Source of the DNA: Candidatus Hermodarchaeota archaeon
Lineage (GTDB): Archaea; Asgardarchaeota; Hermodarchaeia; Hermodarchaeales; Hermodarchaeaceae
Length of the DNA: 64,000 nt
NCBI GenBank assembly: GCA_016839805.1
Contig: JAEOTO010000011.1
Span: forward strand, 1 to 64,000
Direction of reading: 5' to 3'
Shown: positions 6,986 through 46,114 of the stretch, in pieces
How positions within the stretch are numbered: the stretch's first letter is position 1
How the letters are laid out: each line of letters starts with the position of its first letter
The notes under the pieces: generated by a model
Told to the model about the DNA's origin: nothing
Seen by the model: only the letters and a program-made list of their open reading frames with translations
Database searches by the model: none
Position numbers and translations under genes: made by a program

Positions 6986-7093
6986 TGGTGGGCCGGGCGT
7001 GAATTGAACACGCGACCTCCGCCGTTTCCTCGTATCCTACCAATGGGAGCGGGATTCAGTGAGAGCGGCGTCATACCACTAGACTACCGGCCC
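6986..7093 (-). tRNA. tRNA-Val(CAC) with 33-nt intron (7026-7058), apparently at non-canonical position 36/37
   Basis: Mature GGGCCGGTAGTCTAGTGGTATGACGCCGCTCTCAC/ACGGCGGAGGTCGCGTGTTCAATTCACGCCCGGCCCACCA (75 nt, CCA encoded); helix TCTC/GAGG with ACT and AAA bulges. Confidence 0.9.
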
Positions 7094-12436: not shown

Positions 12437-13147
12437 ATGTCACAGGAAATCAAGGGAATCTTCTTCGACTTTGGTGGAACACTGTTCGATTTTTATCCGT
12501 CAAATTCGGAAATTTGGGCAAATGTTGCCAAAAGATTAGGAGTTGACATTAAACCTAGTGATCCTCGTATTCAACATGGGATGAGGAAACAGAGCCAGGC
12601 CTTTGAGAAGTTAGGTAAGCCTTGGTCCGAGTTATCTAGCGATGAAATTCATACACTGAATTGCCAGGTCTTGAAAACTTTGGGAATCGAAACTGAAGGT
12701 ACAAAAGAGACAATTGATGCTGAATTTAGCGCAAGAGAGCAGGGTGAATTGTTTACAATTTATCCTGATACGCTAGAAACGTTGCGGAAAATCAAAGAAC
12801 TGGAGATAAAAATTGGCATCGTATCGAATGTTGGTGGAAAATTGGCTCTCTCTCGACGTCCTACATTGGAAGAAAACGGAATTCTACAGTATTTTGATAC
12901 CATTATTCTCTCAGGAGAAGTGGGTGTCTTGAAACCCGAGAAAGAGATCTTCGATATCGCGCTTCGTGAAATAGGAATTAAGGATCCTGCAAAAGTAATG
13001 CATGTAGGCGATAGTCCAATTGAAGATGTGTGGGGTGCTCGGAATGCAAGATTAATTCCTGTTTTCTTCGATCCACTGGAATTGTTTTCTACTGAAAACG
13101 TTATTAAAATCAAAACATTGTCAGATATTCTTCTATATCTGAAATAA
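12437..13147 (+). CDS. HAD-family hydrolase
   Basis: FFDFGGTL, IVSN, KP, HVGDS..ED motifs. Confidence 0.9.
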   Translation: MSQEIKGIFFDFGGTLFDFYPSNSEIWANVAKRLGVDIKPSDPRIQHGMRKQSQAFEKLGKPWSELSSDEIHTLNCQVLKTLGIETEGTKETIDAEFSAREQGELFTIYPDTLETLRKIKELEIKIGIVSNVGGKLALSRRPTLEENGILQYFDTIILSGEVGVLKPEKEIFDIALREIGIKDPAKVMHVGDSPIEDVWGARNARLIPVFFDPLELFSTENVIKIKTLSDILLYLK

Positions 13148-13156
13148 AATGGGCTA

Positions 13157-14377
13157 GTGATGATAGTGGATGCAGATGTTGTCGTCGTTGGTGCAGGACC
13201 CGTTGGTGGTTTAGCAGCACGACAACTCGCTCGGAAAGGTCTATCTGTTCTCCTTTTAGAAGAGCACCCTGAAGTGGGTCACCCCGTTCACTGCGCTGGT
13301 CTAATTGGCATAAAAGGATTGAACGATAATGGGGTCATTCCACAGTCTGATGTCATTCTTCAACGCGTTTGCCGGTCAATCTTTCATGCGCCATCTGGAA
13401 CTCAATTGGTCTTTGAGAAAGGAGAACCTCACGCTTTTGTATTGAATCGAGATCGTTTGGACCAACAAATCGCCAACGAAGCAGAAACAGCTGGTGCCAC
13501 TTTACAGCTAGAAACACGCGTAACAAAATGCAAACGGGACCGAAAGGGAATGCGTGTTTATGTTACTGAACGAGGCACTAAACGCGAGCTTTTCACACAA
13601 TTTGTTGTTAATTCCGAAGGGATTCGTGCAAAATTAGCACACGATCAAGGGCTTCCTCGACCAAAAAGACACTACATGTTACCGGCGTTGCAATATGAGG
13701 TTGGTAATGTGTCATTACCAGGGGACACAGTTCATCTGTTTTTTAACACCCAGCTAGCGAAAGACTTCTTTTCATGGATCATACCGCTTGATAATAATCG
13801 TGCTCGTGTCGGACTAGCAACAGCTCATAAGCAAGCACGAAAGGCATTAGATAACTTCCTCAGGCAGTCTTCTTTGCTCTCAGAAGCAAAAGTTGAGAAA
13901 CGCTTTGGAGGCATAGTGTATACGGGAGGTCCCTCGTCACGAACTGTAAGTAAACGGTTTGTAAATCTCGGAGATGCGGCAGGACAAACCAAGGCTACAA
14001 CTGGGGGAGGAGTTGTGTCAGGAGGTAGTTGTGCAATTTTGGCTGCATCGAGTATTAGTCGCGCCTTAAGGGGTGGTCATTATGATCACAGGGAGTTGGT
14101 TCGATATGAACGATTGTGGAAACGAGGGTGGGGAAGACAACTAAGGTTAATGGCAATCCTTAGGCGGTTTGTTAACACGCTTAACAATCATGAACTGGAT
14201 CAATTATTCATGAATTTACAAACCGGTAAAGCTCGTGAAATTATTGAACGCACAGGCGATATCGATCGCCAAGGTCGCCTTATCACCACAGCTCTTACTT
14301 CTCCCGCTTTGATAAGGAGTGTCTTGAAGCTTTTTGTGAAAAGAATCCGATTCTTCCCCCATCTACTGTGGGGCTGA
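13157..14377 (+). CDS. Geranylgeranyl reductase-family FAD oxidoreductase
   Basis: VVVGAGPVG, HCAG, WIIP, GDAAGQTK.TTGGG. Confidence 0.85.
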   Translation: MMIVDADVVVVGAGPVGGLAARQLARKGLSVLLLEEHPEVGHPVHCAGLIGIKGLNDNGVIPQSDVILQRVCRSIFHAPSGTQLVFEKGEPHAFVLNRDRLDQQIANEAETAGATLQLETRVTKCKRDRKGMRVYVTERGTKRELFTQFVVNSEGIRAKLAHDQGLPRPKRHYMLPALQYEVGNVSLPGDTVHLFFNTQLAKDFFSWIIPLDNNRARVGLATAHKQARKALDNFLRQSSLLSEAKVEKRFGGIVYTGGPSSRTVSKRFVNLGDAAGQTKATTGGGVVSGGSCAILAASSISRALRGGHYDHRELVRYERLWKRGWGRQLRLMAILRRFVNTLNNHELDQLFMNLQTGKAREIIERTGDIDRQGRLITTALTSPALIRSVLKLFVKRIRFFPHLLWG

Positions 14378-41388: not shown

Positions 41389-41598
41389 GTGCAGATACTG
41401 ACTAAACTCCTGAAAAAGTGCCGTCAGTGCAATACTTACACAATGAATACCCAGCAATGCCCAGATTGCCATGGGGGCGTTAAAAATGCGCACCCAGCAC
41501 GTTTTTCAATTGAAGACCGTTATGGCTCGTACCGTCGTGCGATGAAGAAAGAACTACTCTCAAAAAAGACTACAAGAAAGAGTAAAGGTGGACCATAA
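41389..41598 (+). CDS. nop10: H/ACA RNP protein Nop10
   Basis: KC..C.TYT...CP.C.G....AHP.RFS.ED.YG.YR. Confidence 0.92.
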   Translation: MQILTKLLKKCRQCNTYTMNTQQCPDCHGGVKNAHPARFSIEDRYGSYRRAMKKELLSKKTTRKSKGGP

Positions 41599-44588
41599 TC
41601 GAGTGGGCGTCTAGTAGACGTAGTAATTAATGTTGCGTCCTCGGTAATTTGATCCTGAAGTGAAATGTCACTAGGGGTCGGTGGTGACGGAGCTACCTGG
41701 ATGGGGAGCGTAATGGATACGTTCAAGCCATCGTAAGTAGGCATCAAACTCATATAATGAAATAGAACCATTATATCATCCCCTGCCACAAGATCGAGGT
41801 CCAAAGCCGTCGCATTAATCGTAACACCTAACGTTTCACCAGCAAAGAGAACTCTTCCACCCGTCAAAATTGCATCACTAAGGAAGAAAGTTTTGTCATC
41901 AACCAGACCTTGTTTGTCAACAATAAGATACCCTGCACCCATATTTTCTAGTTCGACATAGATCGTCCCATTGTCGTACGCATAAGACTTCGTTGCAAGT
42001 GCCGTTAAGTTATAAGCAGGAGGATTACGGACTGGAACCGTTACAGATGCTTTGAGATCAGGGGTATATCCGACCAAATTCACGGTGACGTTGATATCAG
42101 TATCCACGGTGAAATAATAATTGGCTCCTGCACTGAGGATGATGTTTTCACCAGGTTCGATACGCAGTGATCCGGTGTTCGTGGATAAGAAGAGCGAAGG
42201 AATGGCACCACTGCGATATTCACCGATACTCCAATCCCAATAATCAATACCTACTGAATCCACTTCAACCGTATAACTTCCTGTATTTCGAACCTCAAGG
42301 GTAATTGATGAAAAATGTTCGATAAGGTTGGTGTCATTGTAATGAGGATAGACGCTTGCTCCACCAATTTCGATGCCGCTGTCTAGCCAGGTGTAATTAC
42401 ATTTGTAGATCTTCATCATCTGAATCTGACTGAAATAGACAGGCTCAAAAATACTAAAGATCGTGATTCCTGGATCGGTTGCCTGACTGGGGAGGGGACC
42501 GGGCTGACCGGTTGCTTCATCGACTGGACGGCTTTCCGCGACACCCTGAATTTCGGAGGAGTTTAGCCACAGCATGTTATAGATCATCGATCGGAAATAT
42601 GGAGCCTTATACTGTCCTGTGGTATCATTCCAGAAGTAATCTTCGCTGGGAACTTGATCACCGAACACCTCGCCAGCAATTCGGATCATCCACTGCCATT
42701 TGCCTTCGTCCCCGCTAAGACCTGGCTGCCCTAATCCGAAATGGACAAAGACATAATCTACGTTCCATCGTCGACAGATGCGAAGTGCTTCCACTGGGTC
42801 TGTTTCCATGAACATGCGACCGACCCAGGCTATTTGCGTTTTATTTATCGTCGCATTATCCACCACGGTATGTCTGTCTCCGACTTGTCTAGTCCAATAA
42901 CCATAGTCCCACCACGAGACCATCGTCGAGCCAGGCGGAGTGTGATGTCGCATCCAAGAGAAGGCTTCAAGATAATCCTGAGCTGGACCCCACTGAATAT
43001 CACCGGTTCGAGCATCACGAGCGGCTGGTATTAATTCGGGACTTCCCATTTGGTTGGTCATGTCAATAGAGGTGATAGTGGCCGATAATAGAAGAATAAT
43101 TACAAAAAGATAGGCAACCGTGGCAAAGCTTCGAGACGTGGGCGGGGTGATACGACGCCGCCGCCTAGTCATAATGGGACGTTGCCAGAAAATAGGACGG
43201 AAGGGACGGATTGCCATTAATAAACCATAGGCACCTAAAATGGCGGCTGCAGGTGCTAATATTAGGGCTAGTCGGATCATGGATCCACTGAAGTAGAGTG
43301 CTGTGAGGGCAAAGATGATTAACAGTATATCTACTTCTCGTTCTCGGCGGAAGGCAATATAGAACCCAAAGGGCAGGAGAAGAACCAAGATACTCAGATT
43401 AAACCAAAACGTAGCCCAGGGGGCTGGTAGGTGTTCACCAACCGACGCAAGCAGAAATGCGTTCTGACGAATTAGCGGGTCGATGACAGTATAAAATTTT
43501 CCTGCAATATCCCCAAGGAAACCTGTTCCCTGTTGTGCTGTTGCCACAGAGAGAAATAATCCAGACTGGAATAAGTAACCAAGACCTACTACAATAAATG
43601 CACACATCGCTCCGAAAATATAGGTAAAATAGGGTTGTAGACGAGTTGAGAGAGTTCCAAAACTACTGGGAAAGCGTAAATCAGTGAGCCGATAAGATCG
43701 GCTTAATTCTACTAATAATAGGATGCCAAATACTCCGAGTGGGATTAATCCTGTCGTAGCTGTTGGCCAATCAGGTCCAATTCGTGGCACGCAGACTGCA
43801 ATTGCCATACCAGTGATAACAACGCCCGAATACGTAATCAGTAATCGGCGCGAATAGCGTCTGATTAGGACCATTACCAGCCCGAAGATGGCAAGAATTT
43901 GAAACATATACAGGTAAACACTCCAACTCGCTGAAAGATAGCCGAGTGAGAGTCCACCGAGGATTGCTGAGGCAATCGATCCTTTCCGTAAAGCCCTAGC
44001 GAAGAAGAATAAGACGAGAAGAATGGCGACAATGCCTATTGCTTCATTATCAAAAAAGCCAGCGATTGTGCGTTGGGTATATGCGGGGATAATTGCCATA
44101 AAGAAGGCTGCTAAAAGTCCCACCTCTTTCGAGCTTACCTCTACACCTAAGGCATAAATTGCTAGAACGCCCATGACTCCCATAAATGCGGGGAAGAGCA
44201 CTGCAACAGTCATTAAATCTACAGGAACACCTACTGCTTGAAACGCCAGGAAAATCAAGGCTGTGGTAAAGGGAATGCCCGGATAAGCTGATTGTGGGAT
44301 ATTGCGTCCGAAGGGTACCCAGGTGGTTGTGTCATACCAACCAAACCAGGCTGCGAATCCATTTTCTATAATGTATTGGGTTTCGCGAAGATTGAACCAG
44401 GGATCGAAGGCTCGGACAAGGAGTTGAAAACCAATTGTAGGTAAAAGACGAATCATCAAGGCAATAATGCAGATAACGAGGAGACCGACCACCCCTAATA
44501 CGTTGGCCCTTGAGATTTCCATGCGTGGACTATGTATGTATCTTCGAAGGAAGGAATAGAAAGACCGCAGGGAATCTCGGATTGTCAT
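41520..44588 (-). CDS. aglB: Oligosaccharyltransferase AglB/STT3 with long C-terminal extension
   Basis: FDPWF, FDNE, SVGEH, WWDYG, DNAT, DEGKWQWM; many TMs. Confidence 0.93.
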   Translation of the reverse strand: MTIRDSLRSFYSFLRRYIHSPRMEISRANVLGVVGLLVICIIALMIRLLPTIGFQLLVRAFDPWFNLRETQYIIENGFAAWFGWYDTTTWVPFGRNIPQSAYPGIPFTTALIFLAFQAVGVPVDLMTVAVLFPAFMGVMGVLAIYALGVEVSSKEVGLLAAFFMAIIPAYTQRTIAGFFDNEAIGIVAILLVLFFFARALRKGSIASAILGGLSLGYLSASWSVYLYMFQILAIFGLVMVLIRRYSRRLLITYSGVVITGMAIAVCVPRIGPDWPTATTGLIPLGVFGILLLVELSRSYRLTDLRFPSSFGTLSTRLQPYFTYIFGAMCAFIVVGLGYLFQSGLFLSVATAQQGTGFLGDIAGKFYTVIDPLIRQNAFLLASVGEHLPAPWATFWFNLSILVLLLPFGFYIAFRREREVDILLIIFALTALYFSGSMIRLALILAPAAAILGAYGLLMAIRPFRPIFWQRPIMTRRRRRITPPTSRSFATVAYLFVIILLLSATITSIDMTNQMGSPELIPAARDARTGDIQWGPAQDYLEAFSWMRHHTPPGSTMVSWWDYGYWTRQVGDRHTVVDNATINKTQIAWVGRMFMETDPVEALRICRRWNVDYVFVHFGLGQPGLSGDEGKWQWMIRIAGEVFGDQVPSEDYFWNDTTGQYKAPYFRSMIYNMLWLNSSEIQGVAESRPVDEATGQPGPLPSQATDPGITIFSIFEPVYFSQIQMMKIYKCNYTWLDSGIEIGGASVYPHYNDTNLIEHFSSITLEVRNTGSYTVEVDSVGIDYWDWSIGEYRSGAIPSLFLSTNTGSLRIEPGENIILSAGANYYFTVDTDINVTVNLVGYTPDLKASVTVPVRNPPAYNLTALATKSYAYDNGTIYVELENMGAGYLIVDKQGLVDDKTFFLSDAILTGGRVLFAGETLGVTINATALDLDLVAGDDIMVLFHYMSLMPTYDGLNVSITLPIQVAPSPPTPSDISLQDQITEDATLITTSTRRPLDYGPPLLFLVVFFESSSFFIARRYEP

Positions 44589-45068: not shown

Positions 45069-45177
45069 TTTGCTGAAACCTCAAATAATTGGTTGATTCC
45101 GTGATTCACCTCTCCCGATATATAGCTCTTTAGTTGTCACCCTCTGAATGCTTGGAGGCAGGGACACCCCGAAGCAG

Positions 45178-45193
45178 TTTTAAACCTTTAATT
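45178..45193 (+). promoter_or_regulatory. Candidate TATA box for the tRNA-Leu precursor
   Basis: TTTTAAACCTTTAATT about 25-35 nt upstream of a hairpin leader starting near 45215. Confidence 0.45.
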
Positions 45194-45257
45194 GCCCTAC
45201 CAATTTACACCTTTGCGGGGGACCCTTCCGAAGGGGTCTTTGCCGCCTAAATAGGTG

Positions 45258-45445
45258 GCGGGGGTTTCTACCCTGTGTAGACCCTACAGCCAAGCCTGGT
45301 TAACGGCGCAGGAGTCACCGGCAATGGCCTGGTGACGGCGTTACTCAAGATCTAACCAGGTAAAGGAGACATCCTGTCCGGCAGCGGTTCGAGGGTTCGA
45401 AGGAGTCCCGTTCTGCGAGCTCCGAAATTCCCTCCCCCCGCACCA
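45258..45445 (+). tRNA. tRNA-Leu(CAA) with four introns (45266-45287, 45313-45342, 45350-45370, 45402-45428)
   Basis: Removing the four segments gives an 88-nt canonical type II tRNA GCGGGGGTAGCCAAGCCTGGTTAACGGCGCAGGACTCAAGATCCTGTCCGGCAGCGGTTCGAGGGTTCGAATCCCTCCCCCCGCACCA; each junction forms a strict or relaxed BHB. Confidence 0.88.
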
Positions 45446-45520
45446 CTTTCCATCGTTACCTTTTTGACTGAGCTTTCACTAGCTTGTATAACGGATTTCC
45501 ATCTCCACGGGGCGTTAATC

Positions 45521-46114
45521 GTGCTACACGTGGTCTATCTTATGCATCCAAGTGGGGTCTGTCTCCTCGACCAAAAATTCGGAGAACTAGAACTTGACTC
45601 CACGTTAGTTGCCGGCTTCTTTTCTGCCATCCGGGAATTCGCGCGAATGATTTCAAAGGGTAAAGGAGAGGCTCGAATTGTGGAGATGGGTGAGTTTTAC
45701 ATCACCTACGCTTCCGGGGATTTCATTGTCGTTGCGGCTGTAGTAGACAAAGAAGACAATCGATTACAAGTTCTCCAAGCACTTGACAAGGTCATTACCC
45801 GGTTTTCAGATCTTTACCAGGAGACGCTCAAAGAATGGGATGGAAAACTAGTTTTCTTTTCATTCACACCAGAACTAAATCAACTGTTAAACAATGGCTT
45901 CGTTGGTGAAGCTGACGAACCTTCACCAAAACTTAAACGCGGTCTTCCTCGCTTGATGGTGAAATTAGGGCAAATAAACCAATTCGAGTACAATGTTGCG
46001 AAACAATGTGACGGAAAACGAACGCCAAAAGAAATCGCTGAGAATGTCGGGCTTCCCTTAGATGATGTAGAAGTACTCTTGTATAAACTGAATAAACTCG
46101 ATCTAATCGAGTAG
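45521..46114 (+). CDS. Longin-like domain protein with C-terminal wHTH
   Basis: YLMHPSGVCLL...DSTLVAGFFSAIREF longin-like pattern; CDGKRTPKEIA...L.KL wHTH. Confidence 0.7.
   Translation: MLHVVYLMHPSGVCLLDQKFGELELDSTLVAGFFSAIREFARMISKGKGEARIVEMGEFYITYASGDFIVVAAVVDKEDNRLQVLQALDKVITRFSDLYQETLKEWDGKLVFFSFTPELNQLLNNGFVGEADEPSPKLKRGLPRLMVKLGQINQFEYNVAKQCDGKRTPKEIAENVGLPLDDVEVLLYKLNKLDLIE

Follow-up and report, generated by a model that had tools for sequence, protein, structure and literature searches.

Structure of the tRNA-Leu(CAA) locus

The window analysed here, a 64,000-nt stretch of contig JAEOTO010000011.1, carries on its forward strand a tRNA-Leu(CAA) gene laid out in five exons. A preliminary description of this DNA had proposed a 188-nt gene at 45258-45445 with exons of 8, 25, 7, 31 and 17 nt that join into an 88-nt tRNA-Leu(CAA), and both the coordinates and the lengths hold. 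When 45258-65, 45288-312, 45343-49, 45371-401 and 45429-45 are joined across introns of 22, 30, 21 and 27 nt, ARAGORN calls the product as a class II tRNA-Leu(CAA) with a full cloverleaf, a long variable arm of 14 nt, A73, the anticodon CAA and an encoded CCA. A long variable arm, the A73 discriminator and a leucine anticodon are identity elements for archaeal LeuRS, and the spliced 88-mer has all three. The proposed span is correct for the gene itself but starts 43 nt too late for the whole element, leaving out an exact upstream copy of the acceptor 5' strand (GCGGGGG) and the spacer of two hairpins that follows it. The features of the locus are listed below.

45169..45184, + strand: promoter-like block CGAAGCAGTTTTAA (BRE/TATA-like), ~30 nt before the first GCGGGGG
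45215..45221, + strand: upstream (U) copy of the acceptor 5' strand, GCGGGGG, 43 nt upstream of the gene
45222..45257, + strand: structured spacer with two hairpins, both kept with base changes across both genera
45222-27 with 45232-37, + strand: spacer hairpin 1
45242-47 with 45254-59, + strand: spacer hairpin 2, which includes G1 and C2 of the tRNA
45258..45265, + strand: exon 1, tRNA positions 1-8, the downstream (D) copy GCGGGGG plus U8; invariant in 25 genes
45266..45287, + strand: intron 1 at 8/9, 22 nt, strict hBHBh'
45288..45312, + strand: exon 2, positions 9-30
45313..45342, + strand: intron 2 at 30/31, 30 nt, relaxed BHB (H 3/4, h 2, long h')
45343..45349, + strand: exon 3, positions 31-37, a 7-nt micro-exon with the anticodon CAA; invariant
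45350..45370, + strand: intron 3 at the canonical 37/38 site, 21 nt, relaxed here (H 3/4)
45371..45401, + strand: exon 4, positions 38-59 with the long variable arm; invariant
45402..45428, + strand: intron 4 at 59/60, 27 nt, strict hBHBh' (H 4/4, h 5, h' 4)
45429..45445, + strand: exon 5, positions 60-76, with A73 and the encoded CCA at 45443-45; invariant
45461..45465, + strand: T5 run in the conserved trailer, a putative transcription stop; the GTTACCTTTTTGAC block is kept in both genera

The block CGAAGCAGTTTTAA, which we call promoter-like from its sequence, recurs upstream of some CAA orthologs, in the second genus and upstream of Leu(UAA) paralogs, and other CAA orthologs have AAACGTTTAAAACA in its place. 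Downstream of the CCA, a trailer block ATCGTTACCTTTTTGAC (45450-45470) is conserved across both genera and could either act as a terminator or belong to the beginning of the next ORF (45464-46114), for which a Pfam search gave no match. The T5 run at 45461-45465 is a possible transcription stop.

The preliminary description expected that standard tRNA finders would probably miss or mislabel this gene, and the two applied here missed it. ARAGORN called nothing in the whole window when given the unspliced sequence, and Rfam gave no match to this gene at the gathering score, or at E<=10 either on the locus alone or in a whole-genome scan. The host genome is a Hermodarchaeota-like Asgard MAG of 2.31 Mb in 50 contigs, estimated to be 87% complete. 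Its assignment agrees with the neighbouring STT3/AglB gene (41520-44588, minus strand), which is 92% identical to a sequence from a MAG labelled 'Hermod', and all close STT3 matches come from Asgard MAGs.

Splicing motifs of the four introns

Introns were evaluated with the bulge-helix-bulge (BHB) definition in the methods of bioRxiv 10.64898/2026.10.13.758758, which requires the four exon bases that precede the 5' bulge to pair with the four intron bases that precede the 3' bulge. The helices claimed earlier for introns 1, 2 and 4 are all found in the sequence, including the strict BHB of intron 4. Intron 1 combines the H helix GGGG/CCCT, complete at 4/4 here and in 25/25 genes, with bulges GTT and ACA, an inner stem TCTAC/GTAGA, an h of 4 that uses leader bases -2 and -1, and an h' of 5. 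Intron 4 has H TTCG/CGAA, h GAGGG/CCCTC and an h' of 4 bp, so that introns 1 and 4 are strict hBHBh' motifs. Introns 2 and 3 have 3/4 H pairs in the host gene; intron 2 contains the inner stem GTCACC/GGTGAC, and the CTCA/GGAG helix of intron 3 is a full CTCA/TGAG (4/4) in 10/13 alignment sequences. The outer helix of intron 3, which is the anticodon stem, becomes contiguous only once intron 2 is removed.

The last two bases of each of the four introns differ between species, as expected of bulge bases. A further 9-bp helix joins the D-loop (45294-302) to bases in the middle of intron 3 (45353-61); it shows two both-sided changes within the genus and is absent from the second genus.

Motif geometry is weak evidence by itself, since a shuffled 350-nt region contains ~10 strict BHB motifs by chance, and the relaxed class also arises often by chance (see also bioRxiv 10.64898/2026.10.13.758758). 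Alternative boundaries at 9/10, 31/32 and 38/39, checked by hand, still yield an identical or otherwise valid mature sequence, at the expense of the central helix. A pruned automatic solver that coupled BHB detection to ARAGORN missed the true intron 3 and offered false alternatives, indicating that exon structure is not fixed by BHB geometry alone. The decisive support for four introns comes from comparative data.

Conservation of the gene across the class

The class examined comprises a single family with two genera and 19 species genomes. All 18 other genomes contain the Leu(CAA) gene, which adjoins STT3 at the same place in 13 other species. In-silico splicing at 8/9, 30/31, 37/38 and 59/60 produced an 88-nt Leu(CAA) from each of 18 distinct genes (the host's own included), bearing out the four BHB-type introns proposed at these sites, and ARAGORN found an intact cloverleaf in the host gene and in all 17 others. 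Exon lengths are constant across the 18 genes, while the introns differ in length (intron 1, 0, 21-24 or 34 nt; intron 2, 29-30 nt; intron 3, 19-23 nt; intron 4, 26-27 nt). In an alignment of 13 species of the genus, 3/88 exon columns are variable compared to 55/100 intron columns. The proposed structure is 96% paired on this alignment, as against 34-52% when the partners are slid, and the inner helices of introns 1, 2 and 4 show both-sided changes.

Two natural comparisons define the boundaries further. A sister species (G005) has no intron 1 and reads through an uninterrupted GCGGGGGTAGCC while keeping introns 2-4, and this precise absence fixes the 8/9 boundary as that of a discrete insert. 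In the Leu(UAA) paralogue, which aligns collinearly with the spliced CAA sequence, none of the sites 30/31, 37/38 and 59/60 is interrupted. When genomes were searched with a Leu-specific 8/9 pattern, it occurred in 18/18 genomes of the family and in 0/112 other Asgard genomes sampled, a zero that does not show absence elsewhere because the pattern is sequence-specific. Taken together, these data make it very probable that the locus is a real, conserved four-intron tRNA-Leu(CAA) gene.

The preliminary description had also called for a check that there is no other Leu(CAA) gene, and none was found in the 87%-complete genome by BLAST with the mature sequence, ARAGORN or Rfam. The locus appears to be the functional, and probably the sole, tRNA-Leu(CAA) gene of the host. 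ARAGORN with its intron option did label 6986-7093 (minus strand) as 'Leu(caa)', a mislabel that arises because the intron is misplaced. The sequence is a tRNA-Val(CAC) with a 33-nt intron beside the anticodon, and its body, a 75-nt class I tRNA, aligns best to the host tRNA-Val(GAC) (score 57, next best 28.5). BLAST with the mature sequence otherwise matched Leu(UAA), Leu(GAG) and Leu(CAG) genes, or gave chance hits.

A leader copy of the acceptor strand accompanies 8/9 introns

Without exception, the CAA and UAA genes of both genera that have an 8/9 intron also have the upstream GCGGGGG, which is one G shorter in one UAA gene. Its surroundings are far more variable: the 9 nt before the copy share merely 40% identity between species, and the spacer varies in 26/36 columns. 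A or C follows the upstream copy, and the downstream copy is always followed by T8. In the Leu(UAA) genes of the second genus (L125-L128) the 8/9 intron is 14-16 nt long with almost no inner helix, and copy and spacer are kept. In the G005 CAA gene (L079 = L007), copy, spacer and intron 1 are all missing, amounting to 65 nt precisely absent, and the mature 5' end sits at the distance from the promoter block that the copy occupies in other genomes. A spliced copy may have caused this joint loss through a short gene conversion, or two deletions may have occurred in succession. The UAA gene of G005 itself retains both the 8/9 intron and the copy.

All three gene families with an 8/9 intron that were found in the host genome carry a copy of their own acceptor strand. 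As a control, a copy with <=1 mismatch was sought upstream of other tRNA genes and occurred at 1/25 of these and at 0/2 other Leu genes, the single positive being a chance overlap with a neighbouring Leu gene. Since Leu(CAA) and Leu(UAA) are paralogous, the association of copy and 8/9 intron rests on two independent origins in the lineage and not three. We think it likely that the leader copy is functionally tied to the 8/9 intron. The new element at this locus is the leader copy of the acceptor 5' strand, together with its structured spacer, beside introns at 8/9, an unusual position.

The third family is represented by a gene on host contig C26 (~13050-13260, minus strand; orthologues L096-L108), which is unrelated to the Leu genes and has the acceptor stem GCCGGGA/TCCCGGC. 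The anticodon loop CTGTGGA makes it a candidate tRNA-His. It has an 8/9 intron with H CGGG/CCCG, a 37/38 intron and at least one further insert before the D-arm, and a near-copy of its acceptor strand, GCCGGGG, lies 13 nt upstream. Across 12 orthologues this upstream copy varies (GCCGGGA, GCTGGGA, GCCGGGT and one deletion) and most of the variants, GCTGGGA and GCCGGGA among them, still pair with the 3' strand. The real acceptor 5' strand shows no variation in the same 12 orthologues.

Folding models of the precursor

RNAfold paired the leader copy with the 3' acceptor strand (45435-41) at p ~0.99, and when the leader was removed the real 5' strand took the 3' acceptor strand instead. RNAalifold reached the same copy/3' strand pairing unprompted in all three gene sets (CAA, UAA and C26), and in the UAA genes it also paired the spacer with the D-loop, D-stem and anticodon stem. 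The acceptor stem is invariant within each gene family, so this pairing comes without compensatory support inside a family.

Averaged over 25 genes, inclusion of the leader lowers the modelled energy cost of the intron 1 helix from 5.0 to 2.4 kcal/mol. Scrambling the copy alone in silico gave a cost of 2.7 instead of 2.4 kcal/mol, and the modelled effect of the copy itself, ~-13.6 kcal/mol, operates through pairing with the 3' strand. The modelled release of the real 5' strand comes from the spacer, not from the copy. Even with the leader, the strict intron 1 helix has a modelled probability of ~0.01. Because the copy alone barely shifts the helix cost, it may chiefly occupy, protect or tether the 3' strand; on these models the copy may serve to occupy or tether that strand and keep the 5' piece attached after cleavage more than to free the real strand. 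The odds that a decoy or tether is the actual mechanism of the leader copy are, in our estimate, about even.

A proposed processing pathway and its alternatives

Our overall explanation, to which we assign a probability of roughly 0.7, is that the locus is a four-intron gene with a leader copy that acts in precursor folding and is removed by RNase P. The exon/intron boundaries, their conservation, the link between copy and 8/9 intron and the enzyme genes of the host are observed, and from these we infer the following RNA-level steps, including the role of the copy and the order of splicing. The precursor would start a few bases before 45215. At the 8/9 motif, tRNA positions 3-6 would pair with the intron and positions 1-2 with positions 10-11, pairings that exclude the acceptor and D stems for as long as the motif exists. 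The leader copy would occupy the 3' acceptor strand by pairing during the time that the real 5' strand takes part in the splicing motif, and the spacer, aided in the host gene by the intron 3/D-loop pairing, would hold the precursor in an open, non-cloverleaf fold. This open fold would let the motifs of introns 1 and 2 form and keep the 5' piece tethered. Splicing is probably ordered, with intron 2 leaving before intron 3, given that the outer helix of intron 3 forms only after intron 2 is removed.

An endonuclease of the (alpha-beta)2 type would cut the four BHB introns, RtcB would join the exons, and as the last step RNase P would cleave before 45258 and the leader would be discarded. The host genome encodes the relevant machinery: RtcB (571 bits), an RNase P RNA (173 bits) and two EndA paralogues. 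EndA 1 (186 aa) is catalytic and closest to 3p1z_B, the Aeropyrum pernix alpha subunit. EndA 2 (198 aa) has its catalytic His replaced by Thr and also matches structural beta subunits. The pair fits the broad-specificity (alpha-beta)2 type. We consider it most likely that the copy belongs to a leader that is cut off by RNase P.

The upstream copy could instead be part of the mature tRNA. On this account the 43-nt stretch from copy to copy would be spliced out as a further intervening sequence, and the gene would have five introns, with its mature 5' strand taken from 45215-21. The mature 5' end of G005 lies where other genomes have the upstream copy, precursor folding puts the upstream and not the downstream copy into the acceptor stem, and up to five intervening sequences are reported from other Asgard lineages (bioRxiv 10.64898/2026.10.13.758758), all of which would suit a fifth intron. 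However, none of 8 equivalent cut registers gives a canonical BHB across the 25 genes; the sole recurrent one (register 5) has 3/4 pairs, which come from a self-complementary GC. The A or C after the upstream copy also departs from the near-universal U8, which the T after every downstream copy supplies. In the C26 family it is the upstream copy that varies (G/A/T at position 7, T at position 3, a deletion) and never the downstream one, a drift unlike that of a mature tRNA strand. A five-intron gene is therefore very unlikely.

Two further accounts would deny a function to the copy or to the gene. Direct 7-nt repeats around a short structured insert resemble an insertion scar, and the copy alone leaves the modelled cost of the intron 1 helix unchanged, so the copy might be a relic without function, such as a 7-bp target-site duplication created when the spacer inserted. 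A relic would not be expected to persist in both genera and both paralogues next to such a divergent flank and spacer, to disappear jointly with intron 1 in G005, or to recur as a different acceptor sequence beside the independent 8/9 intron of the C26 gene, and we consider this origin unlikely, though less so than the fifth intron. A decayed pseudogene that is never spliced, with UUG codons read by tRNA-Leu(UAA), would accommodate the relaxed motifs of introns 2 and 3, and in an 87%-complete genome another gene copy could be unassembled. It is hard to reconcile with the low exon variability relative to introns in 13 species, with intron helices maintained by compensatory changes, with intact cloverleafs from 18/18 distinct genes and with the failure to find any other Leu(CAA) gene; we give it hardly any weight.

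Relation to known interrupted tRNA genes

The preliminary description had given three introns as the most reported for an archaeal tRNA, and up to three per tRNA is what PMC8450103 (tRNAscan-SE 2.0) and PMC4033280 state. This maximum has been overtaken, as a column for a fourth intron in Asgard tRNAs appears in Supplementary Data 4 of PMC11291895 (2024), and bioRxiv 10.64898/2026.10.13.758758 (2026) describes Asgard genes with up to five intervening sequences. A four-intron layout is thus already known in Asgard archaea and is no longer remarkable as such. The gene resembles the multi-intron tRNAs of those two studies in its Asgard host with two EndA genes, in escaping standard finders, and in having several introns of ~20-30 nt at non-canonical sites, including the D-arm and T-arm, with up to four or five per gene. 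It differs from the lineages of the 2026 preprint in its host class, which is of Hermodarchaeota type and is unnamed in the text of the preprint that was searched. The searched text of PMC11291895 and of the preprint likewise makes no mention of an upstream acceptor copy or of the 8/9 site as such, and the preprint lumps its few acceptor-stem and junction cases as 'other'. A full-text literature search, judged by title and abstract, returned nothing on a leader copy of the acceptor strand.

Thermoproteales (Pyrobaculum, Thermofilum and Caldivirga; PMC4090602, PMC4033280, PMC8450103) also have BHB introns at canonical and non-canonical sites, with 30/31 and 59/60 among those listed, a heterotetrameric broad-specificity endonuclease and neighbouring introns removed in order. 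In contrast to the gene described here, their stated maximum is three introns and no leader element is described; the 8/9 site is absent from the positions listed in PMC4090602, a list that ends in 'etc.'. Split and permuted archaeal tRNA genes (PMC3218864, PMC3978253) share the principle that base-pairing between leader or trailer sequences, which lie outside the mature tRNA, and other precursor regions helps to build the processed structure. Unlike those genes, the exons here are collinear on one transcript with no BHB at the termini, and the extra element is a duplicate of the 5' strand, not a leader of complementary sequence that itself forms the BHB.

For annotation, these results mean that a tRNA which seems to be missing exists in hidden form in each of the 19 genomes of the class, and hence that inferences about Asgard MAG completeness and codon reading need intron-aware searches. 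For mechanism, the link between copy and 8/9 intron provides a concrete hypothesis of how a splicing motif can form in competition with the most stable helix of the tRNA. We tentatively extend this idea, at slightly less than even odds, to a general cis device: with a leader copy plus a spacer that is antisense or structured, archaeal tRNA genes could accommodate introns at 8/9 and similar sites, at which the splicing motif has to compete with the acceptor and D stems. The copy would keep the 3' strand held or tethered through splicing, up to its own removal by RNase P. If true, tRNA intron positions would be limited by help from outside the mature tRNA as well as by local exon sequence, which bears on the limits to sites of tRNA intron persistence, a question that bioRxiv 10.64898/2026.10.13.758758 leaves open.

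Other interrupted tRNA genes of the host

Many further tRNA genes of the host genome have one or more introns, and its tRNA set is heavily interrupted overall. Rfam detected only in part the genes at C22:30060-30250 (+), C13:18757-18894 (-) and C22:41700-41813 (+), each of which has several inserts in the D-arm and anticodon-arm. Two more genes, at C22:134171-134256 (-) and C22:223738-223807 (-), have 59/60 introns with the same TTCGAA...CGAAAA frame as intron 4 of the Leu(CAA) gene, and this shared frame hints at related or transposed introns.
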